Part shown: positions 1 through 11,757 of the stretch, one piece after another
Position numbering within the stretch: position 1 is the first letter of the stretch
How the letters are laid out: every line of letters begins with the position of its first letter
Virus genome (UHGV): UHGV-0101678
Length of the DNA stretch: 11,799 bases
DNA from: a virus
Reading direction: 5' to 3' (one strand)
Notes under the pieces: model-generated
Told to the model about the DNA's origin: nothing
The model's input: only the letters and a program-made list of their open reading frames with translations
The model's database searches: none
Translations under genes and position numbers: made by a program

Positions 1-87
1 GATCCTGATCGTCTTGCCTTATTGAATATGATTGCTATTTGCATTTAAAATCGAGACCTGGTTTTTCTACTGAAATGATTATGACTT

Positions 88-100
88 CAATGACCCTTGA
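88..100. repeat. 13-bp direct repeat, copy 1 (caatgacccttga); copy 2 at 11745-11757
   Basis: Exact 13-mer read at both positions. A single exact 13-mer pair is expected about once by chance in a window this size, so significance is weak. Left copy lies in AT-rich DNA; right copy lies at the compositional boundary. Confidence 0.3.
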
Positions 101-155
101 ATGAAGTCTATTCGGTTTTCTAAGAGACCTGTTAATTACAGGACAATATCAGGTG

Positions 156-180
156 TAGTTGGGCTTGTTCCAACCCCTAT
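156..180. repeat. 25-bp direct repeat, copy 1 (tagttgggcttgttccaacccctat); copy 2 at 3235-3259
   Basis: 24/25 identity with the copy at 3235-3259 (single t/a difference). Contains an internal 5-bp inverted repeat gttgg / ccaac. Far too long to be a chance match. Confidence 0.7.
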
Positions 181-350
181 GACTATGCAATTTAATAGTA
201 GTTTTCCAAGTATCTAAGCAGTTTCACACAGATTCTATGCAGTATCGGTATAGTCTCTTTTTACCCTAACTCATTGAAATATATAAAGAATCTGTGAAGT
301 CTCTTTTCAGGGTAAACTGTATCGTGTTAGTCGTCCCTCTCCAGACACTA

Positions 351-390
351 CATATAGTGCTATATACAGGGCTATATAACGATATATAGA
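351..390. repeat. AT-rich reiterated motif, three copies of (g)ctatata / gatatata at about one helical turn spacing
   Basis: Read directly: catatagtgCTATATAcagggCTATATAacGATATATAga, copies starting near 359, 371 and 381. Iteron-like or protein-binding array; function unknown. Confidence 0.35.
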
Positions 391-501
391 TGTTTGGTCA
401 CCATACGTTACAGTTGCAAGAGATAACAATCAGCTATGTGAAAGTTAGGAAGTGATGGTTATAGTTACCCTCCTAAAATCTTCATAGCTCCTTCATAACC
501 A

Positions 502-624
502 GTCTTAAAAGGACTTCCTTTTGAGACACTTTCAACGTAACGGTAGAATGCACCCTCAAGGAGTCTTAAAAGGTTGTTTTTGGATTATGAGACAGCTAAA
601 CTTATGAGACTAACTTTTGAGACT
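502..624. promoter_or_regulatory. res/hix-like recombinase binding-site cluster and probable autoregulated promoter region upstream of the serine recombinase gene
   Basis: 26-bp imperfect palindrome at 502-527 (gtcttaaaagga-ct-tccttttgagac, arms 11/12 complementary). Second site 563-593 pairs gtcttaaaa with ttatgagac across a 13-bp spacer. Two further direct half-sites ttatgagac (602-610) and ttttgagac (616-624) sit just before the RBS and ATG at 639. The reverse complement TGTCTCATAA resembles the Tn3 resolvase half-site TGTCTGATAA as I recall it. Confidence 0.5.
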
Positions 625-638
625 TCTAAGGGGGATGT

Positions 639-1187
639 ATGGCGGTGATTGGTTATTGCAGGGTATCAACACAAGACCAGACTGTAGACAACCAGAAACT
701 ACAGATAGAGAAGGTTCACAAGGTCGATAAATGGTTTATTGATGAGGCTGTCTCAGGAGCTACAAAGGCCACCAGCAGAGATGGTTTTAGAGACATGATG
801 AACTATGTAAGGTGTGACGATACGTTAGTTGTGGTAGCTATTGACCGTTTAGGGCGTAATACCGTTGATGTGCTCTCTAACGTTGAGTCACTACAGACTA
901 AAGGTGTGAGAGTTGTTTCTTTACGTGAAGGTTTTGACCTGTCTACACCAATCGGTAAAGCAATGCTTACTATGATGGCTGGTTTAGCTGACCTTGAAAA
1001 AGACCTTATCAGTGAGCGTAGAAAAGCTGGTATTGAACGTGCTAAAGCTGAAGGGGTTCACATGGGAAGACCCGTAAAAGCTTCTTCAGAGACTGTAAAG
1101 ACGCTTATTTCACAAGGTAAAACGAGGTTGCAGATTCAGGAAGAGCTAGGAATCTCTAGAGCAACTTATTACAGACTTGCTAAATAA
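639..1187 (+). CDS. small serine recombinase, resolvase/invertase family (Hin/Gin/TnpR-like), 182 aa
   Basis: N-terminus MAVIGYCRVSTQDQ matches the catalytic-serine motif (compare Hin MATIGYIRVSTIDQ). AIDRLGRN motif present. C-terminal GRPVKASSETVKTLISQGKTRLQIQEELGISRATYYRL is a resolvase-type HTH. RBS aaggggg lies 4-5 nt upstream. Confidence 0.9.
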   Translation: MAVIGYCRVSTQDQTVDNQKLQIEKVHKVDKWFIDEAVSGATKATSRDGFRDMMNYVRCDDTLVVVAIDRLGRNTVDVLSNVESLQTKGVRVVSLREGFDLSTPIGKAMLTMMAGLADLEKDLISERRKAGIERAKAEGVHMGRPVKASSETVKTLISQGKTRLQIQEELGISRATYYRLAK

Positions 1188-1367
1188 GTTACTGAATAGT
1201 TACATGGATGTGACTGATATTTGGCTTTTTTGCAAAGGGGGTCACATAGCTGGTGTGACGGGTACTTAGCAGCTACAGATTGATTGCAGATATTTTCGAA
1301 GATTATCGGGGAAGGGAAATGTAGAGGGGCTAGTCATTTTTTATAAAAAATTTAGAGGCTGGATATT

Positions 1368-1405
1368 ACCTGTATAGATTTTAACCAGTATAGAAGCCTG
1401 TATAA
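1368..1405. repeat. three direct copies of cc(t/a)gtata(g/a) in the recombinase-methyltransferase intergenic region
   Basis: cctgtatag (1368-1376), ccagtatag (1385-1393), cctgtataa (1397-1405). Lies directly upstream of a small RBS-preceded ORF pair. Possible operator or iteron. Confidence 0.3.
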
Positions 1406-1871
1406 CATGAGGGGTTCCTATGGTCACTATATCCCTCTTTCCCACTAAGGAAGCCTTAGCAGCACCTAGGCAACTATTGACTAAGGTCAACTTCATAAAC
1501 TCAGAGTTAAGTTACCTTGAAAGATTCTACCAAGAAACTACACAGGTATTATTTAGTCTGACTGTGAAGAGATGTTTAACGGGAGGAAGAGAACCATGAA
1601 ACCGAAGGTAGGTTCTATCTTAACAGTGACCGTAAGAAGAGAACTTGAGAGACAACTAAACAAACCTCTTAAGTAAAAGACAACACTCCAGAAAGAGTGT
1701 CTGTTTAACAGGCTTCTCAAAAGCTCTTAAGAAATCTGTTAAGTAGGGTCATGTGAACAATCTTACCATTTTGTCAAGTGTTTTGTCTTTGACCTAAATC
1801 AATAAAATGTATCGTTTGATATGCTTTTAAACAAAATAGCTAAAAAATCTTTTTAGAGGGGCGCTTCGCTT

Positions 1872-2540
1872 GTGTCACATCCAATAATCAATGTCGGTCG
1901 TTATCATGGTGGTTCTGATGACTGGCGTACACCGTATCGTTTATTTCGTAACCTACACCGTGAATTTGGTTTTTCGATGGATGGTGCTGCAACTGAGCAT
2001 GACACGCTGTTACCACGGTTCACCGATGATATTCACAATCAATCGTGGATTGGTGAACGGGTCTTCGTTAACCCGCCGTTTAGCATGGCTGAGCAGTTCC
2101 TCCTAAAAGCCCCTGAAGCTGATGTGTGTGTATGTCTGGTTCCGCACAGGTCAAAGACAACTTACTGGCTTCGGTGTGTATATACAAACCCCTTTCTGCA
2201 TGAGATTCGAACGTTACACCGAGCAGTCAAATACCTTCCACCAGCAGGGAAGAAAGGTGTTGCAGCGCGTTCACCGTTTCCAAGTTGCGTTTTGATATAC
2301 AGGAACACACCCCGCAAACCGAAAGTTGAAGTTACCCAGACAATCTATTGTGGCGACACAATGCTTTTACTTGCCGTGGTTAACAGGGGTGGTTTACGTG
2401 GAAGACCCACCATTTACCCACCTGAGACGCTCGACAGCTTCATAAAGCTATACAGGCAAGGAAAACCCATTAAGTACATTGCAGATGCTCTCAGAATGCC
2501 TCTGAGCACGTCATACAGAATTGCTCAAAGGTTGAGCTAA
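1872..2540 (+). CDS. Dam-family (phage-type) DNA N6-adenine methyltransferase fused to a C-terminal resolvase-type HTH domain, 222 aa; GTG start uncertain
   Basis: Motifs DWRTP, FSMDGAAT, VFVNPPF (NPPF catalytic motif), PHRSKTTYW, HEIRT and SPFPSCV match the phage Dam N6-adenine methyltransferase family. The C-terminal roughly 50 aa (GRPTIYPPETLDSFIKLYRQGKPIKYIADALRMPLSTSYRIAQRL) resembles the HTH of serine recombinases. Putative RBS agagggg 10 nt upstream of GTG. Confidence 0.8.
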   Translation: MSHPIINVGRYHGGSDDWRTPYRLFRNLHREFGFSMDGAATEHDTLLPRFTDDIHNQSWIGERVFVNPPFSMAEQFLLKAPEADVCVCLVPHRSKTTYWLRCVYTNPFLHEIRTLHRAVKYLPPAGKKGVAARSPFPSCVLIYRNTPRKPKVEVTQTIYCGDTMLLLAVVNRGGLRGRPTIYPPETLDSFIKLYRQGKPIKYIADALRMPLSTSYRIAQRLS

Positions 2541-2580
2541 AATTCTCATATAGAGCACTGATTATGAGAATGTTAAAGAG

Positions 2581-2613
2581 GCGATTTCCCCTGTCTGGGG
2601 TTATTCGCTTTTT
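2581..2613 (+). terminator. rho-independent terminator-like hairpin downstream of the methyltransferase gene
   Basis: gcga-ttt-cccc-tgtct-gggg-ttat-tcgc followed by ttttt. A diverged second copy of the same roughly 40-bp element is at about 2744-2783. Confidence 0.45.
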
Positions 2614-3002
2614 ACTGGAAGGGTTATTTTACAGAGGTTTTTCAAACCCCCTCAATAATAGAAACGAGCAACAAACGAAGAGCGAGAAATAAAATATTGA
2701 GACTGGTGAACGGGGTCTGTAAAGATTGTTTAAGAAGTCGGTTAAGAAGGTGGCTCTCCCTTTCTGGGGTTATCGCCTTGTATCTTAGTGAGTCCAGGAA
2801 GTTCTCTGTGAAGAGTCTTGTCAGTCCTTTATATTGGCTAATTACAACTTATTGAAAAATAAGAACTTTTAGAAATTACTGTCAGAGAGGTGAATACTTG
2901 ATAGATACAGCTTTCCGGTTCTGTCAAGCTATTTTTTAATAGATAGCACAAAATGCTAAAGATGCCCCTATACCATCACGTACAGGGGGTTTTGAAGGGA
3001 GT

Positions 3003-3179
3003 TTAACGGGGTTCTGTGTGGTCATTATCCTTAAGGTCAAGCGTCCATGTACGACCGAACAATCGGAACACAACAAGCACTCTGACGAGGACGTAGCGAA
3101 GTAGCAGGCCTGCAAGCAGTCCAACACCTCCACCAGTCCATACATCAGGTGACCCCAGTTCAGGAGGGAGATTTACCAT
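3003..3179 (-). CDS. candidate small hydrophobic protein (58 aa, one predicted transmembrane helix); speculative
   Basis: Minus-strand ORF with ATG at 3179 preceded by AGGA about 8 nt upstream. Product MVNLPPELGSPDVWTGGGVGLLAGLLLRYVLVRVLVVFRLFGRTW... has a Gly/Leu/Val-rich membrane-helix-like segment. Could be a chance ORF over a locally GC-richer patch. Confidence 0.25.
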   Translation of the reverse strand: MVNLPPELGSPDVWTGGGVGLLAGLLLRYVLVRVLVVFRLFGRTWTLDLKDNDHTEPR

Positions 3180-3234
3180 TAAATTTCCTGTGTGCAATGC
3201 AATACCATGTGACCAAATACATAGTTGATTCGGT

Positions 3235-3259
3235 TAGTTGGGCTTGTACCAACCCCTAT
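3235..3259. repeat. 25-bp direct repeat, copy 2 (tagttgggcttgtaccaacccctat)
   Basis: 24/25 identical to 156-180. Flanked by a short inverted repeat attcg (3228-3232) / cgaat (3260-3264). Upstream attcggtt also occurs at 110-117 near copy 1. Confidence 0.7.
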
Positions 3260-3346
3260 CGAATAAACCTCATAGCCACGCCTTTATATTTTCCCTCTCT
3301 CATAAAACCATTATACCACAGATGTTAATGAAATGTTAAAAAATGC

Positions 3347-3375
3347 TTGACATTAGTCTTTGAAACTGCTAAGAT
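3347..3375 (+). promoter_or_regulatory. sigma70-like promoter for the small-gene operon
   Basis: -35 ttgaca (3347-3352), 17-bp spacer, -10 taagat (3370-3375); followed by RBS gaggg and ATG at 3427. Confidence 0.4.
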
Positions 3376-3426
3376 TGTATATATGAGTTAACAGAATAAT
3401 AACATCTTATGAGGGTCAGAATATGA

Positions 3427-3981
3427 ATGAGAGACGCAGAATTTAGAGCGATGCTTCAGGCATCAAGAGAACGCAACAAGCACAACTCCTACGCTTACAC
3501 AGACACCCCCACCAGCCACGAAGTACCCAAGTTCACCAGAGCAGAACGCAAAGGCATTGACGAAGTAATTCGGGCAATTACACCGAGGAGTCGTTATATG
3601 CCAACCAGAAAGAGCACGAAGAACACTATTAAAAATTATCTGGCTAACTTTGATTCTTACGAGCAACTACCATCAAAAATTGAAGATTTAATTATCGGAT
3701 TTTGCAGAAGTGAAGGTCACCCGAAATACAACAAAAAACTATTTTATATTCTAAAGAATCTTGATGAAATTAACGCAGCCAGCGTGACAAATTATCTTCA
3801 AAGACAAGCAACCAGACTTAGCTACGAATTACCAAGCGATAAATATTGTGCATTGCTTGCTGTAATGTGTGCAAAGCTGATTGGTATTGTTGAACATCAT
3901 ATTGCCGTTGGGAATATTGAGCCAATGGAAAACGAGCAACCAGACTTTGAGTTTGACCCGTATATTTTGGAGGAATTTTAA
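3427..3981 (+). CDS. hypothetical protein, 184 aa, first gene of operon
   Basis: Long ORF with RBS (gaggg) and upstream promoter-like element. No motif recognised by eye. Confidence 0.6.
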   Translation: MRDAEFRAMLQASRERNKHNSYAYTDTPTSHEVPKFTRAERKGIDEVIRAITPRSRYMPTRKSTKNTIKNYLANFDSYEQLPSKIEDLIIGFCRSEGHPKYNKKLFYILKNLDEINAASVTNYLQRQATRLSYELPSDKYCALLAVMCAKLIGIVEHHIAVGNIEPMENEQPDFEFDPYILEEF

Positions 3982-3982
3982 A

Positions 3983-4264
3983 ATGAAAACCAGACACACA
4001 CTAACCAGAGTTACAAAGACAGCCTTTGAAGAACTTAACAAAATTAAGAAGGTTACAGGTCTTTCACATGCAGCAGTGATGAAGCTTGCAATTAACCGTG
4101 ATATTAACGAGCAGGATTTGCTTAATAGTCGCTTAGAGGCAGCAAGACACCATATCCGGATTAAGAAAGATGACCTTGATAGTCTGAAATCTTTAAATGC
4201 TTTTGGACTGGATTTAGCAAGGTTGCTAAGCATCAAAATTAACAAGCTATCTCAAGAGGTCTGA
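3983..4264 (+). CDS. ribbon-helix-helix (CopG/Arc-like) DNA-binding protein, 93 aa
   Basis: Start moved to ATG 3983 (RBS ggagg 3971-3975; the previous gene stops at 3981). N-terminal TLTRVTKTAFEELNKIKKVTGLSHAAVMKLAIN follows the beta-alpha-alpha pattern of CopG-type RHH proteins. The track start at 3881 would overlap the upstream gene. Confidence 0.55.
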   Translation: MKTRHTLTRVTKTAFEELNKIKKVTGLSHAAVMKLAINRDINEQDLLNSRLEAARHHIRIKKDDLDSLKSLNAFGLDLARLLSIKINKLSQEV

Positions 4265-4266
4265 CT

Positions 4267-4539
4267 ATGAAGCAATGGCGAGATGATATTAAACGGTTCT
4301 TTGCAACTTACTTCATGATTAATTACGAAACAGGAATGCTTGAATGGATTGATGGTGGAGAGGTTAAGACAAGAGATGACGCTTACGGTAATCCAATGAT
4401 TCGTTATGGCACTCGTGATTATTATGTGAAATATGTCATCTGGTTTTTGCATCATGAAGTTCAGGCAACTAAAAAGATTATCTTCAGGGATGGTAATAAA
4501 AGAAATTGCCACCCAAACAATTTACTACTGGAGATTTAA
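4267..4539 (+). CDS. HNH_3-like protein, 90 aa, with degenerate catalytic motif (likely inactive or domesticated HNH)
   Basis: C-terminal DYYVKYVIWFLHHEV...IIFRDGNKRNCHPNNLLLEI parallels the phage HNH_3 signature (YYxHRLxW...DHIDGNxxNNxxxNL), but HRL is replaced by KYV and DHIDG by FRDG. RBS agagg upstream; 2-nt gap from the preceding gene. Confidence 0.55.
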   Translation: MKQWRDDIKRFFATYFMINYETGMLEWIDGGEVKTRDDAYGNPMIRYGTRDYYVKYVIWFLHHEVQATKKIIFRDGNKRNCHPNNLLLEI

Positions 4540-4739
4540 TGTTATGTATTAAATTCGAATATTTGACAGATAAAATGATTAAGCATGTATCAGACCTGCT
4601 CATCAAAGAAGGTGGTTTCGGTGATGCTTGCAATCCAAAAGATATCTTCATTCATGCCACCAGCCCAAACGCAACACTAAAGACAGCAGTTACAGCGGAA
4701 TGGTTTGAACGAAATAAAGCGGAATTAGGTTATTGGTAG
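4539..4739 (+). CDS. hypothetical small protein, 66 aa (translationally coupled)
   Basis: ATG at 4539 overlaps the upstream stop (TAATG) with ggag 5 nt upstream. The track ORF start at 4506 lies inside the upstream gene. Confidence 0.45.
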   Translation: MLCIKFEYLTDKMIKHVSDLLIKEGGFGDACNPKDIFIHATSPNATLKTAVTAEWFERNKAELGYW

Positions 4740-4918
4740 TCCGAGACTTTAAGAGAAATTAGAAAAACAGCTTCTCAGACGCTCTCAATCGCATTCTAAC
4801 GCAAAAAACTACCTTATTTTAGGGTGGGTAATACCACTGTGCAGGCTACCCCTGAAAAAGACTGTTTAGCTCGTTACAGAGCGATTGAGGAGGTCTGGTA
4901 AAAAGGAGATTTTAAGAA

Positions 4919-5242
4919 ATGAATAATTACGAATTACAGATTTTCGTTGATAGCGACACCACCATGATGATTCAGGCTTTCACTGATGCAGATATTATCA
5001 TTGACTTTGATAAGTTGTTAGAGTTAATGGCTGATAATGCGGAAAGCATCTCTGACTTTATTCAGTCGGTGGAGTTTAACGAGCCTCGAATGATGCTACC
5101 AATTACAGACTCAAACATGAAAAGATTGGTTATCGAGCAAACGAACAAATACAGTATTTCCCCAGAGCAATTTTTGAAAGGTGCTGTGACAATCCTGTAC
5201 AGCGATAATATTCTGGTGACGGATTCTGTGAGGGTTCACTAA
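4919..5242 (+). CDS. hypothetical acidic protein, 107 aa
   Basis: ORF with RBS aaggag about 10 nt upstream of ATG. No recognisable motif. Confidence 0.5.
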   Translation: MNNYELQIFVDSDTTMMIQAFTDADIIIDFDKLLELMADNAESISDFIQSVEFNEPRMMLPITDSNMKRLVIEQTNKYSISPEQFLKGAVTILYSDNILVTDSVRVH

Positions 5243-5342
5243 TGATGTTAATTGTATTGTGGACACTGCTAGGGGTATTTGTTGGCTGCATTATTAACAA
5301 TGCGGTAAATAAGAATTGATGTTACCAATCTGTTAAAAGCTG

Positions 5343-5371
5343 TTGACAAATAACCTTGAGCATGACATAAT
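5343..5371 (+). promoter_or_regulatory. near-consensus sigma70 promoter driving a non-coding region
   Basis: -35 ttgaca (5343-5348), 17-bp spacer, -10 cataat (5366-5371), then tgtatatat. No convincing RBS-preceded ORF follows for about 400 bp. Confidence 0.45.
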
Positions 5372-5542
5372 TGTATATATAGGGAGAGCAATTCTCTCTT
5401 ATTTTTCTTTCAATAATCCGATGGATAGATATTCTGAGTTGGAAAGGTGCAATGCTTTTCGCTACATGGCCTTTCAGGTTGGTCTGAGAGGTCATCTCGA
5501 AAAGTCTTTGTTCATTCATTCGTTTGAATCCTTTACAGCTTT

Positions 5543-5570
5543 GCCCTAATCATGATTAGGGCTTTCTTTA
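5543..5570 (+). terminator. perfect 20-bp palindrome followed by a T-rich tract (terminator-like; alternatively a dimeric protein operator)
   Basis: gccctaatcatgattagggc (5543-5562) is exactly self-complementary, followed by tttcttta. Confidence 0.35.
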
Positions 5571-5769
5571 AGAGTTTTTAAACAGACTTTTAAAGAAAGT
5601 TTTCCTGAAACTTCGTTAACGTTATAAGCAAACCTTCAAAGCCCTTCACAGATTATGTTTAGGGCTTTTCTTAATAGAGCATCTTTAATAAATCGTTAAG
5701 TCATCTTCTAAGTGTATTGGCGTTGAAGGTGCTCTATTAAGAAATAACCACACTTAGAGGAAAATTATA

Positions 5770-6480
5770 ATGACAAACGATTTATATATTAACGGTAGAA
5801 AGGTTGATAGCTTCGGTGACTGGTCGCCACAGACTGAACATCCAGCTATCGCTATTCAGCGTAAAGAACACGATGAAAGAATTAAGCTTGAGCAATCGCT
5901 AAAGATGTCACCAAAAACAACCATCTTTGTGTATCCTGAACCTCAGGAGATGCCTGATGTTTGCAAAACTGAATCATTACTTGAGCTTGAAAAGAAATAT
6001 TACCCACTGCTAAAAGCACAGCGTATTAAGCTTGATATTGCTTACGACAATGTGAAGAACTTTGAAGAGACTGAGAAGCCAACTGATTTTGATATTGAAG
6101 TGAAAATTAGACAAAACCCATTCGTATATTACTCAGTTGAGGATAATGATGGTTTTGGTACAGCAAGAGAGAATATCTCAAAAGTTCTTCAAAACATCCC
6201 TGAAGGATTCCGTTTAATTGATGTTAGACCAGCTTCACGCGGTACAGGTTCATATATTTTACTGTCTGATAAAACAGATGAAGAGATTTGTCAGTTAGCT
6301 GAAAAGAATCTACTTGAGCGTCATAGCAAAAAGTTAAACAGATTTAAGCAAGAACTTGCTAACCAGCTTCAGGCTATGAAAGAGCTTGTGAAAGAATATG
6401 AAGATGCTAAGAAGGTTGCTATGCAGGCCGATATTGAGCAGCTTACGAAGATTTCTCAGAAATATGCAAAGGCTATTTGA
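5770..6480 (+). CDS. hypothetical protein, 236 aa, with C-terminal coiled-coil-like segment; first gene of the tail-like block
   Basis: ORF with RBS agagg about 9 nt upstream. C-terminus rich in heptad-like K/E/L/A residues. Position relative to the tape-measure gene suggests a structural or assembly role, unproven. Confidence 0.6.
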   Translation: MTNDLYINGRKVDSFGDWSPQTEHPAIAIQRKEHDERIKLEQSLKMSPKTTIFVYPEPQEMPDVCKTESLLELEKKYYPLLKAQRIKLDIAYDNVKNFEETEKPTDFDIEVKIRQNPFVYYSVEDNDGFGTARENISKVLQNIPEGFRLIDVRPASRGTGSYILLSDKTDEEICQLAEKNLLERHSKKLNRFKQELANQLQAMKELVKEYEDAKKVAMQADIEQLTKISQKYAKAI

Positions 6481-6488
6481 GGTGATTA

Positions 6489-6797
6489 ATGAATGATTTA
6501 ACAGAACGCGATGAAGCAACTAAATTTTTAATTGAGCATTTTGAAGGTAAATTACAGGGGATTCGAACGACTCTTGATGATATACAGACATACAGTGAAT
6601 ATATCATTGCCAGTTTGAAGGAAAAAACTCTTGATGAGCTAAAGTATATGGGGCGAGATGACTTAACAGTTTCCCTTATCGACCTCAAAGACAAAGTAGC
6701 TGCGCTCGATAAAGAGTATTATGAGACCTTTCTTTCACTTCGTTACGAAATTGTAAAGAACGAACGCGGTGTAGAGTGCCTTCGCTTCTTAGATTAA
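6489..6797 (+). CDS. hypothetical small protein, 102 aa
   Basis: ATG 6489 with RBS gaggtga. N-terminus MNDLTERDE is paralogous to the next ORF. Confidence 0.55.
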   Translation: MNDLTERDEATKFLIEHFEGKLQGIRTTLDDIQTYSEYIIASLKEKTLDELKYMGRDDLTVSLIDLKDKVAALDKEYYETFLSLRYEIVKNERGVECLRFLD

Positions 6798-6823
6798 AAT
6801 CGAATTAAAAAAGGTGGTGGTGA

Positions 6824-7027
6824 ATGATTGATTTAACAGAACGCTATGAACTTATTAAAGCAATTAGCGAACGATTGAAAGAACAACCCAACAAACCAAA
6901 ACGAATCAAAGCATCACCTCTAAAACAAAATGACAGAATCAGAAGAATCGCTAAGTGGTGTCTTGATAAATTACCAAGTGATTGTCAGATTGTCGGTGAA
7001 GATGGTAATTATTATCTGGTTAGGTAA
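6824..7027 (+). CDS. hypothetical small basic protein, 67 aa; N-terminal paralogue of the preceding ORF
   Basis: ATG 6824 with RBS aaggtggtgg. The first 27 nt of the coding sequence are nearly identical to 6489-6515 (MIDLTERYE versus MNDLTERDE). Confidence 0.5.
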   Translation: MIDLTERYELIKAISERLKEQPNKPKRIKASPLKQNDRIRRIAKWCLDKLPSDCQIVGEDGNYYLVR

Positions 7028-7053
7028 CAAGAATTGGTTGGGTGAAAATCTAC

Positions 7054-7093
7054 GGGAGAGATTATCGAGTGACATCGGTAACTCTCCTTTTTT
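7054..7093 (+). terminator. hairpin plus T6 tract between the small ORFs and the tape-measure gene (attenuator or terminator candidate)
   Basis: gggagag (7054-7060) pairs with ctctcc (7082-7087) around a 21-nt loop, followed by tttttt (7088-7093). Confidence 0.4.
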
Positions 7094-7123
7094 GTATATG
7101 AACACTTAAGAGGTGAAACATGA

Positions 7124-9172
7124 ATGAGCAAATTCACAGTTGATAGTTTTATCGTTGAGCTAAGCTTCAATGAAAACGTTGTTAAGGGCTTGCAAAGAGT
7201 TGAAAAGGCAGCTTTGCAGTCAGCACAAAGAATTGAACGTAATTTGAATAGAGCGTTTAAGGTCGATACCAAGCAACTTGACAGCAATCTGACAAGTTCT
7301 TTAGGGCAACTTGAAAGGAAGTTTAATAAGACCTTTGACAAGATTGAGCAGCGTCTTAAAAACACTAGAGCGTTTAAGATTAAAACGGAAATTGAGGATA
7401 CTTTAAAGCCACTTAGACAGCCAAGACAGCCACGAATTAGCGGCAACAGAGCAATCACAGCAGCTTATTCAGCGAATATGTCTAAGCTAAAAGGTCTTAA
7501 CCCAATTGTCGAGAAATACATTAAGAGTCAGTTTTATGGGCTAGCTAGTAAAGCTGGTCAGATGGATAACACCAAGTTTAATGAAGCCCTTGCTAAACTA
7601 AATTCAAGTGTAAGAGAAGCAATCACTAAAGCCAGAGGTCATACATCCACCAGCATTAATGGTGACAGAGCAGCTAGCAGCCTTGATAACCTGTCTTCGG
7701 CAGCAGTCAAAACAGCAGGTGCATTTATCTCAATGCAGGCTGTATTAGCCAGTTATCAGAAGATTATGGAAGTTGGTTTACAGCGTGCAAGTGCTGAACG
7801 TTCAATTGATTTCGTATTTGATAAAGATGCAGGTCAGGTAAAAGAGTTCACAAAGTCATTAGCTCAAACAACGGGTTTAGATATCGCTGAACTGCAATCA
7901 CAGTTTGCTGGTTTTGGTGCTTCAGCTAAAGAATCTATGGGTATTCAAGGTTCTGAAGAACTTTTTAAAAATATGATTGGCTATGCTCGTCTGATGGGGA
8001 GAAGTGAAGAAGAGATTAAGCGAGCACTGACAGCATTATCACAGATGGCTGGTAAGGGTCAGATTATGGCTGAAGAGCTTAAGGGGCAACTGGCTGAAGC
8101 TGTTCCTGGTATGGTGCAGGTGTTCGCTAAAGCAACCGGAAAGAGTGAACAGGAATTATTTGATGCCATGAAGAAGGGGGCTTTAAAATCTGCCGATACT
8201 CTTCAGAAGGTCACTCAGGAACTGAATAAACAAATCACCGCTAAAGGTGGCTGGAAAGCCATTTCAGAAAGTACTCAGGCACAACTAGGGAACCTGAAAA
8301 ACTCTTGGAATACCACGCTTGATAGTATCTTCAGAGGTTCTGAAAATGGTCTTCAAGATTTCACAAGAAGCCTAACAACGCTTTTAAACGCTCTTGGTGG
8401 AAGTGGTAAAAGTCTTGGTGAATCTCTTGGTAGCTTGATGACTGATATGTCACATGGTGTCGATTCATTGACTGATATTTCTTACAAGGTGAGAGGTTTC
8501 TTTGATGAGGTGACATTGGCTTATCGTGGTTTAACCGATGAACAAAAGAAAGTTGTTGATGCTTTAGGTTCTGGCTTGATTAATAGTTTAAAAGTCTTGG
8601 CTGGTGTTATTGCTGTGAATAAAGTTGTTGGTGTAACCAGAAGTATTTACGGGCTTATGACTGCTATCACAAGATTAGGTCAGGTCGCTGATACTACAGC
8701 GGATAACGTGAATAGAAAGAACGGGAAACCATCAAGGTTTAATCTTGGGAATATGCTATTAGCTGGTAGTGCTATCTATGCAGGTTATGAGAGATTAGCT
8801 TCTACGCCTGAACGAATGGAAGCACAAGCTAAATTACCAGAGCTGGCTAAAGAGTCTGGACTTAAGCCAGTATTTACTATGGACGATGTGAAAGGTTGGT
8901 TTAATAGTGCAGCTATGAATCTTGCTAACTTCCAGCATCCAGAATTAATCACCATGAGACAAGATGCGGCATTAACGAATACGGATATCCAAAGCCTGAG
9001 AGATGAAATTAGTGCTTTGAGCAAACGTATTCAGGAGCCTGTGAAAGTTTCACTTGGTGGTGAAGTTGCCATTAAACCAGATGAAACCAGCTTTATGACC
9101 TTTAGCAGTAATATCTACGACCAATATGCAGAAGCTACGCTATTAAGTTCATCATTCCCAGAAGATGATTAA
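7124..9172 (+). CDS. tail tape-measure-domain protein, 682 aa
   Basis: Central segment GYARLMGRSEEEIKRALTALSQMAGKGQIMAEELKGQLAEAVPGMVQVFAKATGKSEQELFDAMKKGALKSADTLQKV matches the conserved tape-measure core motif (PG-containing helix pair). Overall the protein is long, helical and low-complexity as tape measures typically are. RBS agaggtg 8 nt upstream. Confidence 0.75.
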   Translation: MSKFTVDSFIVELSFNENVVKGLQRVEKAALQSAQRIERNLNRAFKVDTKQLDSNLTSSLGQLERKFNKTFDKIEQRLKNTRAFKIKTEIEDTLKPLRQPRQPRISGNRAITAAYSANMSKLKGLNPIVEKYIKSQFYGLASKAGQMDNTKFNEALAKLNSSVREAITKARGHTSTSINGDRAASSLDNLSSAAVKTAGAFISMQAVLASYQKIMEVGLQRASAERSIDFVFDKDAGQVKEFTKSLAQTTGLDIAELQSQFAGFGASAKESMGIQGSEELFKNMIGYARLMGRSEEEIKRALTALSQMAGKGQIMAEELKGQLAEAVPGMVQVFAKATGKSEQELFDAMKKGALKSADTLQKVTQELNKQITAKGGWKAISESTQAQLGNLKNSWNTTLDSIFRGSENGLQDFTRSLTTLLNALGGSGKSLGESLGSLMTDMSHGVDSLTDISYKVRGFFDEVTLAYRGLTDEQKKVVDALGSGLINSLKVLAGVIAVNKVVGVTRSIYGLMTAITRLGQVADTTADNVNRKNGKPSRFNLGNMLLAGSAIYAGYERLASTPERMEAQAKLPELAKESGLKPVFTMDDVKGWFNSAAMNLANFQHPELITMRQDAALTNTDIQSLRDEISALSKRIQEPVKVSLGGEVAIKPDETSFMTFSSNIYDQYAEATLLSSSFPEDD

Positions 9173-9329
9173 TAATAGTCGAATGCTACGTGAATAAAGC
9201 AAAGTTAATACCCACACTAAAAATTATTTTTTACGTAGCTCACGCTTAACAGAGAAAACACTTATATATCAAAGGCTTGGTTAAAAATGATTAAAACACA
9301 CTAAGCCTTTGAAATCAAAGGAGAATTTA

Positions 9330-10103
9330 ATGATTTTTAGCAATCAAATCCGCTACAGTGGCAAAGATGGCGTTTACTTCCACTTAAGAGATAATGTAGA
9401 TGCCTTCTTAACCTTATCAGCAACTGAAAACATGGAATTTGACAGCCCTATGCAGGTGACTACACAGAACATGCAATCAGGGCAAACCGTCACAGATAAT
9501 GTGCAAAGAGCACCCAGAACAATCACTATTAGTGGTGTCGTCGTAGTTGGCTATGAAGGAAGCTTATTATTAACTCGTCAAGGCCAATTAGTAGAAAACT
9601 TCATTGACACTCTTGAAAGCTGGCGTGACCAGAAGCAGATTATTTCGGTCATCTGTAAAGATGGTATCAAGATTGATGACTCCATTATTACGAGTTTTAA
9701 AGCCTCTAAAGATGTTGGTATTTCAAATGGTCTAAGAATCCAGCTAACTTTTCAGGAAATCAACTTTAAGGCTATTGTAGGGCAAACTGATATTTCAGCA
9801 GCCACTGGCAAAACGGCTACCACAAATGATGGTGGCGCTACCAGCAAAAAGAATGCGGGTAACGTGACTACTGAACGCAATAACGCACCTATGCTGATGT
9901 GTCAGGAACTGTACAGTTACTCAGCGTCTGAGCTATCTGATGAAGCATTAAAAGCCCGTAGTAATTGCTCTAAAAATGTCACGGTGAAAGATGGTGTAAG
10001 CACCTTCACAGACTCAGCTAATTCAGGTGCTGCAAAGGTACTCAAGTCGGGTAATGCTTTACGGAAGTTTTCTGTGAATCCGAACAAGAAGGGCACTTAT
10101 TGA
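9330..10103 (+). CDS. hypothetical protein, 257 aa; candidate distal-tail-type protein by position only
   Basis: Start set at ATG 9330 (RBS aaggag 7 nt upstream) rather than the track TTG at 9309. Lies immediately downstream of the tape-measure gene. No motif recognised. Confidence 0.6.
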
Positions 10104-10108
10104 GACAT

Positions 10109-10130
10109 AAAAAGGGGCTTCATAGCCCCT
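10109..10130 (-). terminator. rho-independent terminator for the integrase gene (hairpin between convergent genes)
   Basis: aggggct-tcat-agcccct perfect 7-bp stem (10113-10130). On the minus strand it is followed by TTTT(A), and it sits 6 nt beyond the integrase stop. Confidence 0.5.
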
Positions 10131-10135
10131 GATTG

Positions 10136-11656
10136 CTACAGTTGATAAGCGTCTATTTCTAGTAGCTCTTTTTCAGCAATTTCAAAGATAGATGTTCCAT
10201 CATTTAGAGGTAGCGGGTCTGTAGGAACAATTATTTCAGTGTCGTTCTGTAGCGTTACAGTTACCGAATCCTTACCCAATGTAAGCCCTTTTAGATGCTT
10301 GGACAAAATCAACTGACACTCGACACGACCCGCTTTAGTCATAAGGTCAATATCTTTAAGCTGGGGTAGTTCCTTATCAGTGAGTGAAGCCTTACGCCTC
10401 ATGTTATCAATCATGGTCTGTAGTTCTGTGCGCTTCTGGTTCAGTTCCTTAAGCTGAATTTTTAGTTCATCAATATCATCCATCTCAAGAAGTAGGGCGG
10501 TAGCTTTCTTGATTCTGGCTGTGACAATTTCAACCTCATGCTGTAGAGATGCAATCTTCCCCTCTGCTTCTCCATCATTCCCCACGTCAATCATCCCCAG
10601 AAAATTATCAATCATCCACTTATCAAACGGTTTACGCTTCAACGGTGGAACATCACAGCGACCGTCTAAGTGGTTATTGCACCTGTAGACCCCAGCATAC
10701 TTATTCTTAGTCCCTGTAGGGTGAACACTAGCCCCACACTGACACCGGAATAATCCCTTGAAGATGTTAATCGTTAATGGGTTATCACTTGCAGGTGTGC
10801 GACCTTTACGATTTTTATCGAGGATTTCTTGAGCTTTATTGAACGTTGAAGCATCTATAGCGGCTTCGTAGTAGTTCGGTATAGCGGGGCGGTCATTGCG
10901 CTGTGATGCTGGTAGTGTACCTCTCGTTGTCTCTGACCTTAAGATAGTACGCACAGAATGAACGCTAAAACCATTAGCATCTTTACGCCGTGAGAATGAA
11001 CTAATGTTATTAGCCTGTAGGTGACGGGCGATGTTATGCAGACTTTCACCATCTAGCAGCAGCTTGAAAATCAGTCTTACAGTCTCAGCGTGTTCATTGC
11101 ACTTGAAAGTATCGGGGTCAATCCATCCGGGAACCATCTTTGTAAGACGTTGTTCACCAGCAAGGGCAAGCTTTGCACGTTGTTTCCACTTCTGGCTAAC
11201 ACGGAAAGACTTCTGCTTAGACTCTTGATGAGCTACGTAGCTTTTAACGCGCTGGATGATTGAGATTCCTAAATCATCGGATAGAGCATCCCTTGTGTAG
11301 ATTAGCCCATCCTGTAGAGTGTGAATCTCGATACCATGAGCAATAATGCGATTCATCAAGGCTTCTGTTTCAAGATGTTCAAGGCGGCCTATGCGGTCGA
11401 TAGCTTCGACTAACAGAAGTGTACCTTCTGGAAACTCCCCAGACTCAATACGGGCTAACATGTCACCAAACTGACCAGTAAGATGCTTACCTTTGTAACC
11501 ACTCAACCCTTCATCACTGAAAGACGCTACTACTTGAGCATCGCTATTCTTCTTCAACCATTGCTTGAACAGGTCATTTTGTCGTCTGGTTGAATCTGCA
11601 CCTTCAGCGCCTTGTATGGCTGATGAGAATCTCAAGTATGTTATTACACTTCTCAT
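10136..11656 (-). CDS. large serine recombinase (integrase), 506 aa
   Basis: N-terminal catalytic domain (ITYLRFSSAIQ, EAIDRIGR), recombinase domain, a Cys-rich zinc ribbon (FRCQCGASVHPTG...YRCNNHLDGRC) and a C-terminal coiled coil give the typical large-serine-integrase architecture. Confidence 0.92.
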   Translation of the reverse strand: MRSVITYLRFSSAIQGAEGADSTRRQNDLFKQWLKKNSDAQVVASFSDEGLSGYKGKHLTGQFGDMLARIESGEFPEGTLLLVEAIDRIGRLEHLETEALMNRIIAHGIEIHTLQDGLIYTRDALSDDLGISIIQRVKSYVAHQESKQKSFRVSQKWKQRAKLALAGEQRLTKMVPGWIDPDTFKCNEHAETVRLIFKLLLDGESLHNIARHLQANNISSFSRRKDANGFSVHSVRTILRSETTRGTLPASQRNDRPAIPNYYEAAIDASTFNKAQEILDKNRKGRTPASDNPLTINIFKGLFRCQCGASVHPTGTKNKYAGVYRCNNHLDGRCDVPPLKRKPFDKWMIDNFLGMIDVGNDGEAEGKIASLQHEVEIVTARIKKATALLLEMDDIDELKIQLKELNQKRTELQTMIDNMRRKASLTDKELPQLKDIDLMTKAGRVECQLILSKHLKGLTLGKDSVTVTLQNDTEIIVPTDPLPLNDGTSIFEIAEKELLEIDAYQL

Positions 11657-11744
11657 GGTGATAAACTCTCATGCAATTGATTATCATTTAAAGATGAACT
11701 TATAAACGTTATGGCTAATGCTACAATGCCGAATAGCTACAATA

Positions 11745-11757
11745 CAATGACCCTTGA
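11745..11757. repeat. 13-bp direct repeat, copy 2 (caatgacccttga), at the compositional boundary next to the integrase gene
   Basis: Exact match to 88-100. Immediately followed by GC-rich sequence (11758-11799, about 60% G+C by count), unlike the rest of the window. Confidence 0.3.

Follow-up and report, generated by a model that had tools for sequence, protein, structure and literature searches.

We report that a gene at positions 1872-2540 of the window (the whole stretch of 11,799 nucleotides that was analysed, from virus genome UHGV-0101678) encodes a Dam-family N6-adenine methyltransferase domain fused to a DNA-binding domain of the serine recombinase type. By profile and by motifs, the predicted protein is a member of the Pfam Dam family, and its C-terminal part is a homologue of the DNA-binding domain found in serine recombinases. 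Judged from its conservation, the fusion is an old and selected event that has spread across Enterobacterales. In the window it is carried by an integrative island with close ties to the Felix O1-like phages. We tentatively read the protein as an active orphan methylase that is docked or regulated by its helix-turn-helix (HTH) and that would protect or mark island DNA at a site other than GATC. Each half belongs to a known family, and a literature search for an HTH_7-methylase fusion found no study of an orphan phage-type methylase combined with a recombinase-derived DNA reader.

Orphan methylases are common on mobile elements, yet little is understood about target choice by the small enzymes of the Dam family. 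In the present gene, a Dam domain and a DNA reader of the recombinase type are permanently linked. The gene and its parts are listed below, with positions in the window.

1872-2540, plus strand: methyltransferase-HTH fusion gene, 222 aa, GTG start, TAA stop (open reading frame list; Pfam, PHROGs and PADLOC)
1914-2384, plus strand: Dam-family (PF05869) N6-adenine methyltransferase domain, residues ~15-171 (Pfam match and homologue boundaries)
2070-2081, plus strand: catalytic motif IV, NPPF, residues 67-70 (N67, P68 and P69 invariant)
2385-2408, plus strand: serine-recombinase-type arm RGGLRGRP, residues 172-179 (predicted flexible minor-groove arm)
2421-2534, plus strand: three-helix HTH, residues 184-221, with recognition helix LSTSYRIAQRL (AlphaFold, HTH_7, PDB profile and folds)

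The initial annotation had described this gene as a fusion of a Dam-family methyltransferase and an HTH, which our analysis confirms: the open reading frame spans exactly 1872-2540, the NPPF motif is in place and the Pfam Dam profile (PF05869) matches residues 15-145 with an E-value of 2.6e-13 and 50.5 bits, above the cut-off of 28.1. In the homologues P0123 and P0127, the Dam profile extends to positions 162-164 of 169, which correspond to the modelled strands 155-171. The protein is also matched by the PHROGs family phrog_111 'DNA methyltransferase' (E 5.7e-25) and by the PADLOC 'orphan methyltransferase' model (E 1e-8). An identical gene with the same start is found in NZ_CP123593.1, where PGAP labels the product 'DNA N-6-adenine-methyltransferase' (WP_106485563.1). 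Residues 34-40 read FSMDGAA, which is the N-terminal F-x-x-D-x-A-A motif of the family, and in our alignments N67, P68, P69, E31, F32, F34, D37, A39, W59, E111 and R113 are invariant down to 31% identity. Structural comparison of the methylase domain using Foldseek returned distant adenine methyltransferases only (PCIF1, CamA, M.TaqI and KsgA), and a sequence search of the full protein against the PDB gave nothing useful for this domain.

The nearest characterized group is that of the phage-type Dam enzymes (PF05869/TIGR01712), such as PamA and the Stx phage Dam. These enzymes have in common with the fusion protein an NPP[YF] motif at about residues 65-70, the F-x-x-D-x-A-A motif and an orphan state on mobile elements. 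The fusion protein differs from them in its low identity (~30%), in its extra C-terminal DNA-binding domain and in falling under the TIGR01712 cut-off: this NCBIfam equivalog is not reached, with 35.4 bits compared to a cut-off of 97.05 and an alignment over residues 15-82 only. Staphylococcal phage Dam genes are among its best phage matches (~31-33% identity), and PamA probably belongs to the same family as those genes. In PamA, a Dam-like enzyme of a S. aureus prophage that methylates GATC, the NPPY motif lies at about residue 65 (PMC11042277). The fusion gene, in contrast, sits in an element without any GATC. The non-specific adenine methylases Hia5/Hin1523 were considered as close relatives and rejected; with their DPPY, FxGxG and recognition region they form a different class.

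For the C-terminal part, the Pfam resolvase HTH profile (HTH_7, PF02796) matches residues 177-217 with an E-value of 2e-4 and 21.8 bits, just under its cut-off of 23.8 bits. The homologue P0127 scores 28.1 bits, above the same cut-off, PF02796 is precomputed for several cluster representatives of the fusion family, and the combination of PF05869 and PF02796 is present in precomputed database annotations. Using a profile built from the C-terminal 59 residues of 11 members of the family, a search against the PDB found the DNA-binding region of the Sin/Bin3 resolvase (2r0q, E 5.9e-7), with an alignment spanning the 'KGVYKGRPLLY' arm, as well as gamma-delta resolvase (1.2e-4) and Tn3 resolvase. 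AlphaFold models three helices at residues 184-195, 200-206 and 211-221 with a pLDDT of ~90, preceded by an arm (173-180) that is disordered, with a pLDDT below 50. The top Foldseek matches of the C-terminal fragment are Sin, gamma-delta resolvase, Tn3 resolvase and Hin. The likeness of the C-terminus to a resolvase HTH is thus far beyond chance, and the resolvase-type HTH proposed from the initial reading is supported by profile, model and fold alike. The domain boundary analysis that had been suggested as a check gives the three segments listed above, and the alignments bear out the C-terminal HTH. By the same alignments and models, both domains are intact.

With the small serine recombinases (Sin/Bin3, gamma-delta, Tn3 and Hin) the fusion protein shares a G-R-P arm, a three-helix HTH and an S-T-x-Y-R recognition helix. 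The arm RGGLRGRP is invariant in 120 close homologues and aligns to 'KGVYKGRP' of Sin. Unlike these recombinases, it has no catalytic domain and is independent of the res repeats of the island resolvase. Pfam finds no resolvase catalytic domain (PF00239) in the fusion protein, compared to an E-value of 8e-42 for the neighbouring gene. Having neither this domain nor the serine nucleophile, the fusion protein cannot recombine DNA.

A search of 5.8 billion proteins found 531 proteins related to the fusion at E<=1e-3. For 119 of the 120 relatives listed, the length is 220-222 aa and the identity 73-89%; the sources are E. coli, Shigella and E. albertii. In the alignment of these 120 homologues NPP[FY], DGAA and RGGLRGRP are invariant and the two halves are about equally conserved. 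An exhaustive HMMER search extended the family to full-length fused relatives at 42-58% identity in Erwinia typographi, Raoultella terrigena and Pantoea, all of which retain the arm and the recognition helix; beyond these, the search returned stand-alone Dam domains only, of 150-190 aa. Pairwise comparison of seven E. coli alleles gives a dN/dS of ~0.1-0.3 for the methylase part and for most comparisons of the DNA-binding part. Other fusions of the Dam family are also found, with a ParB HTH (P0234) or with second methylase domains, which indicates that this family commonly forms modular fusions.

These data bear on one rival explanation, namely a recent accidental fusion or a pseudogene without any selected function. 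Such an accident could leave a junction with a recombinase 3′ end, and in one genome (L029) the fusion gene is indeed split by a frameshift. Nevertheless, the architecture is kept down to 42% identity in hundreds of homologues across several genera of Enterobacterales, and both halves are under purifying selection, so that the fusion is not a recent accident and this explanation is scarcely credible. The initial annotation had also suggested an origin by deletion into the 3′ end of a recombinase gene. The junction retains the recombinase motif [K/R/E]-G-x-x-x-G-R-P, which makes an origin by fusion to a serine recombinase 3′ end plausible as an ancient event; as a recent event it is contradicted by the conservation and by the dN/dS values.

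The genomic context of the gene is an island of 11.6 kb, with the following main features.

101-11744: integrative island (comparison with the empty site)
500-625: res-like repeat cluster, AGTCTTAAAAGGA-CT-TCCTTTTGAGACA with further copies of AGTCTYAAAAGG / TGAGAC (read from the sequence)
639-1187, plus strand: small serine recombinase of the resolvase/invertase type, 182 aa, upstream of the fusion gene (Pfam Resolvase, E 8e-42; HTH_7, E 2e-7)
4267-4539: HNH endonuclease gene, 90-aa protein (PHROGs and annotation)
7124-10103, plus strand: tape measure protein (7124-9172) and the protein following it (9309-10103), related to Felixounavirus tail genes
10136-11656, minus strand: large serine recombinase, 506 aa, presumed island integrase (Pfam Resolvase, Recombinase and Zn_ribbon_recom)

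The island is bounded by a 13-bp direct repeat, CAATGACCCTTGA, at 88-100 and 11745-11757, which includes the tonB start codon. The ends of the window match the E. coli tonB region, where related islands lie between yciI and tonB; the sites of related islands are tonB, yecE (a DUF72 gene), mdtG and a position near ymdF. Beyond the genes listed, the island encodes several proteins without a known family in Pfam or PHROGs, and a weak TerS-like open reading frame adjoins the HNH gene. No capsid or large terminase gene was found among the island genes, and the only tail genes are the two related to Felixounavirus. An Rfam search of the whole window returned no match.

Among 5426 complete E. coli genomes, 377 (~7%) have a core gene of the island and 214 have the fusion gene, with all copies chromosomal; NZ_CP123593.1 and E24377A are among the carriers of the fusion gene. 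The difference between the two counts indicates that the fusion gene is optional cargo. It lies in the left arm, where it comes first or second from the island's end. In one island without it (L009), the open reading frame is gone from about the fourth codon to shortly past the stop and the flanking non-coding DNA is kept on both sides; in another (L024), an AP2-family gene is found in the left arm in place of the methylase. Three further islands (L025, L026 and L029) contain the methylase and no resolvase. Outside E. coli, the fusion gene adjoins a small tyrosine recombinase in other island-like elements of Erwinia, Raoultella and one further assembly, one of which has a capsid-like gene. In Pantoea the fusion gene is the first gene of an island in which the tape measure gene is again present.

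The link to Felix O1-like phages comes from the right part of the island. Parts of 7115-9863 show 88-95% nucleotide identity to more than 200 genomes of Felix O1-like phages (Felixounavirus), and the GC content of the island matches that of Felixounavirus. The island tape measure protein (682 aa) is 28% identical overall to that of phage ekra (735 aa), and its closeness to the phage protein is confined to the first ~45 residues and the extreme C-terminus. The protein after the tape measure is 79% identical to its ekra counterpart, with ~97% over the first ~170 aligned residues. For 1188-3426, which includes the fusion gene, no similar phage DNA was found.

The island also shares with these phages a complete lack of GATC. 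We observe no GATC in the window island compared to ~41 expected, and the only two GATC of the window are in the E. coli flank. Four further islands, three with the methylase (L001, L002 and L008) and one without it (L009), equally contain no GATC between flanks of normal density. A stretch of 50 kb from Felixounavirus ekra has none compared to 175 expected, and the genus has been described as lacking GATC (PMC5477317, PMC4690856). The avoidance extends to hexamer palindromes, with an observed to expected ratio of 0.59 in the island and 0.56 in the phage compared to 0.87 in the E. coli flanks; 24 of the 26 palindromes missing from the phage stretch are also missing from the island. This shared avoidance suggests that the island has been under the same restriction pressure as the Felix O1-like phages. 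The relatives of the gene in Erwinia, Pantoea and Raoultella lie in elements with a normal GATC density, which indicates that GATC avoidance is a trait of the E. coli island and not of the gene.

Based on these data, the island probably travels in Felix O1-like phage particles, and we infer that it is a satellite or hitch-hiker of these phages that moves between strains. It has what is looked for in a satellite: an integrase, att repeats together with an empty site, an incomplete set of virion genes and genes related to those of a helper. A previous study noted that a tape-measure gene had passed between E. coli chromosomes and a virulent phage of E. coli; PHASTER reports no prophage at the chromosomal loci concerned (PMC11069274). 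The island resembles PLE of Vibrio cholerae (the satellite of ICP1) and the PICMI satellites in being a small integrated and highly mosaic element with a serine integrase and several integration sites, in which a few genes derive from a single lineage of virulent phages and genes for a capsid or a large terminase are missing. It differs from them in that no sequence relationship is seen and in that it brings a tape measure protein of its own, together with the protein following it. A literature search for a satellite of Felix O1 found no description of this island. It apparently represents an undescribed family tied to virulent phages that are candidates for therapy and biocontrol.

A 'Dam' gene in a GATC-free island is a paradox, which points to a new specificity or to a role directed at the host. 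A GATC-specific enzyme would have nothing to methylate in cis and would only repeat the work of the host Dam, so that the enzyme probably has another target or acts on the host. On the reading that we tentatively prefer, the compact phage-type Dam domain and the recombinase arm and HTH in one chain would make up a partner-less N6-adenine methyltransferase. The enzyme would modify adenines at a non-GATC target, not only on island DNA but inevitably on that of the host as well, and this modification would either let the island survive restriction in the next host or serve as a self-mark. The HTH may anchor the enzyme at specific DNA and in this way supply or sharpen its target choice. It is not needed for catalysis as such, since stand-alone Dam-family enzymes work without an extra DNA-binding domain. 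A methylase that is narrowly targeted would, for its part, give poor protection against diverse restriction systems.

Alternatively, the HTH could repress the expression of its own gene, like the HTH of SsoII-type methylases. M.SsoII, M.EcoRII and M.MspI are C5-cytosine methylases of complete restriction-modification systems in which an N-terminal HTH represses their own promoter. The likeness is one of principle, a methylase and an HTH in one polypeptide. The fusion protein, in contrast, is an orphan of the N6-adenine type with a C-terminal, recombinase-type HTH, and our searches of upstream repeats and flank motifs identified no operator.

Several other roles have to be weighed against this preferred reading. 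We consider it somewhat unlikely that the protein is a site-directed epigenetic switch, in which the HTH recognizes a target, a few adenines nearby are methylated and the transcription, replication or packaging of the island is controlled in this way. Such a switch would account for the separate recognition domain, which Dam-family proteins of the usual 150-190 aa do not have, and it would be in line with the different DNA binders that other lineages attach to the Dam domain. The gene also lies between long conserved non-coding regions, which are kept even in the methylase-less island L009. However, these regions are unchanged in islands without the gene, so that their role does not need it, and no conserved or co-varying site was found. 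The free shuffling of catalytic and DNA-binding alleles described below would fit a generic writer with an exchangeable reader, but the recognition helices of the two DNA-binding alleles are nearly identical and the gene is dispensable in ~40% of the islands. It is unlikely that the protein is a GATC-specific Dam acting on the host chromosome, where over-methylation would disturb SeqA, MutH or gene expression and leave the GATC-free island and its helper immune. For an element without GATC, raising Dam activity could come free of cost, and precedent exists, as the fusion protein is homologous to phage Dam proteins and PamA methylates GATC and alters host gene expression (PMC11042277). E. coli is nevertheless already Dam+, which makes the gain doubtful, the identity to characterized relatives is only ~30%, and the normal GATC density around the Erwinia, Pantoea and Raoultella relatives does not fit. 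This role would also leave the HTH unexplained. Distinctly unlikely, in our view, is the reader-writer form of the hypothesis, in which the HTH would pick a site and the Dam module, having no recognition domain itself, would write m6A beside it as a private mark for a Felix O1-dependent satellite with a GATC-free genome. If true, such a mark could separate the satellite from host and helper DNA in replication or packaging, or gate induction, and the natural reshuffling of catalytic and HTH alleles would then have produced variants that differ in specificity, as part of an arms race.

The two remaining alternatives concern the methylase activity itself and a missing partner. If the protein were mainly a transcription factor, its HTH would regulate island genes and the methylase-like domain would be an inactive scaffold or a sensor of S-adenosylmethionine. 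The position of the gene, first or second at the left end of the island where satellites often keep their regulators, is in agreement with this idea, as is the AP2-family DNA-binding gene that takes its place in the same arm of some islands. Yet NPP[FY] and the family-invariant residues are strictly kept under purifying selection, whereas in an inert scaffold their loss would be expected; the conservation of the catalytic residues makes an inert regulator decidedly improbable. Finally, the methylase could belong to a restriction-modification or defence system whose nuclease is a small island protein. Pfam, PHROGs, PADLOC and NCBIfam find no endonuclease or defence partner among the island proteins except the 90-aa HNH protein, and several neighbouring open reading frames without a known family could be added as candidates. 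The HNH gene is, however, 1.7 kb away, the adjoining TerS-like open reading frame suggests a role in packaging, and PADLOC gives the orphan-methylase model only. The HNH gene is kept in L009 and L024, which have no methylase, and a restriction nuclease could not be kept there unprotected. Consequently, the HNH protein is not a restriction partner and a system of this kind is highly improbable. The gene content argues that the fusion protein is not part of a restriction-modification system, in support of the term 'orphan' used in the initial annotation.

We also looked for the DNA target of the HTH. An early proposal was that the HTH directs methylation to the repeats at 502-624. This cluster overlaps a promoter-like site that immediately precedes the resolvase gene, and across 11 islands it tracks the resolvase gene and not the methylase: it is present in one methylase-less island and absent from the islands that have the methylase and no resolvase. 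This result indicates that the sites are not required as a target of the HTH, and the proposal is unsupported as a requirement; on our preferred reading, the resolvase and its res repeats would be a separate module. The DNA-binding domain of the island resolvase is ~32% identical to the HTH of the fusion protein.

A 25-nt direct repeat (156-180 and 3235-3259) was considered as a pair of res sites bracketing an excisable cassette of resolvase and methylase, and was rejected on the basis that the left copy is absent from L001, L002, L008 and L009. Upstream of the fusion gene we found three types of inverted repeats. Type Y occurs only with HTH allele B (4 of 4) and type X with both A (5) and B (2). 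Accordingly, there is no strict co-variation, and the upstream inverted repeat was rejected as a site matched to the HTH allele. De novo motif discovery in the gene flanks of eight diverse relatives found no common motif above shuffled controls, and the upstream regions of the E. coli gene and of the Erwinia and Raoultella relatives show no nucleotide homology.

Comparison of alleles reveals that the two halves of the gene have different histories. Between the window and L002 alleles, dS is 0.16 in the methylase domain compared to 0.88 in the DNA-binding domain. The window and L008 alleles show the opposite pattern, with a dS of 1.36 in the methylase domain compared to 0.19 in the DNA-binding domain. 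These opposite patterns indicate that the halves have been swapped by recombination within the gene. In the catalytic domain, a window/L002 type is distinguished from an L008/L025 type, and the two HTH alleles read TIYPPE...AQRLS and HIHDAQ...VQRL. By this measure, methylase and DNA-binding alleles recombine independently of each other. As the halves are naturally recombined in sequenced E. coli strains, correlating the methylation motif with each half would show which of the two sets the specificity.

Alleles of the methylase gene (window 1872-2540), in which a Dam-family catalytic domain is fused to a serine-recombinase-type DNA-binding domain, were compared with those of related loci (L002, L008, L025-L028 and L031-L036). 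The catalytic domain exists as two deeply diverged alleles, and the DNA-binding domain also as two. These are found in differing combinations, which shows that recombination has occurred inside the methylase gene. The 5′ leaders of the gene fall into three unrelated types, one of which lacks a Shine-Dalgarno sequence ahead of its ATG.

The gene lies between long non-coding regions, the downstream one with several repeats:

1403-1871 and 2541-3426, long non-coding regions on either side of the methylase gene
2572-2604 and 2741-2773, repeated hairpin-like units in the downstream region
about 2730-2760, iteron-like GGTTAAGAAGGTC repeats in the downstream region

Homologues of both regions are kept in L009, an island without the methylase gene, where the iteron-like GGTTAAGAAGGTC repeat is found in three tandem copies. 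For L008, the upstream region is around 99% identical compared to only 74.5% for the methylase coding sequence. A search of Rfam with the whole window returned no match. The two regions might act as an origin or packaging site, or encode non-coding RNAs.

Further repeats accompany the resolvase (small serine recombinase) and methylase genes:

500-625, res-like cluster with AGTCTYAAAAGG / TGAGAC repeats in inverted and direct orientation
156-180 and 3235-3259, 25-nt direct repeat TAGTTGGGCTTGT[T/A]CCAACCCCTAT

The res-like cluster overlaps a promoter-like site directly upstream of the resolvase gene and is present in all seven islands (7/7) that carry this gene. The 25-nt repeat is itself an imperfect palindrome, and its two copies bracket the resolvase and methylase genes. 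Both L001 and L008 conserve the right copy; only the window island has the left one.

Across the island (window 101-11744), GATC is entirely absent (0 versus around 41 expected) and hexamer palindromes are strongly depleted. The islands in L001, L002, L008 and L009 likewise have no GATC, while the E. coli flanks are normal. The pattern agrees with that of Felixounavirus genomes: phage ekra has no GATC in 50 kb.

The island also carries tail genes and small open reading frames (ORFs):

3980-4539, 94-aa ORF followed directly by a 90-aa HNH endonuclease
6489-6797 and 6824-7027, adjacent small ORFs
7124-10103, tape measure protein and the following protein

The tape measure protein is 53 aa shorter than its Felixounavirus counterpart, with close conservation limited to around 45 N-terminal residues and the extreme C-terminus; the following protein is 79% identical to the phage copy. 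This suggests that a satellite-like element remodels the tail or interferes; we found no published description of such an element.

The 94-aa ORF has a weak match, under the cut-off (E 5e-4), to the small terminase subunit of the P27 family. With this weak match, the pair resembles the small terminase and HNH endonuclease pairing typical of HK97-like packaging modules, and it may be a device redirecting packaging. The adjacent small ORFs share a 44-nt start (6481-6524 and 6816-6859, 82% identical; N-termini MNDLTERDE... and MIDLTERYE...), which indicates that the 5′ part of a gene was duplicated in tandem.

At its ends, the island is positioned as follows:

88-100 and 11745-11757, 13-bp direct repeat at the island ends
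11658-11687, promoter-like site upstream of tonB, from the island right end (11650-11744)

The insertion point is the tonB start codon, and the native tonB promoter region (window 1-100) is thereby cut off from the gene. A Fur-box-like sequence, ATTGATTATCATT, accompanies the promoter-like site upstream of tonB.

Distant fused relatives occur in other genomes:

L004, L005 and L006, about 8570-10700 in each, fused genes with their recombinase neighbours in Erwinia, Raoultella and one further assembly
L010, 9941-19465, Pantoea island opened by the fused gene

The first three lie within other island-like elements, one with a capsid-like gene, and in each the fused gene is around 800 bp away from a small, divergent tyrosine recombinase of 186-205 aa. 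The Pantoea island adjoins cmoA/cmoB and also encodes a tape measure protein.
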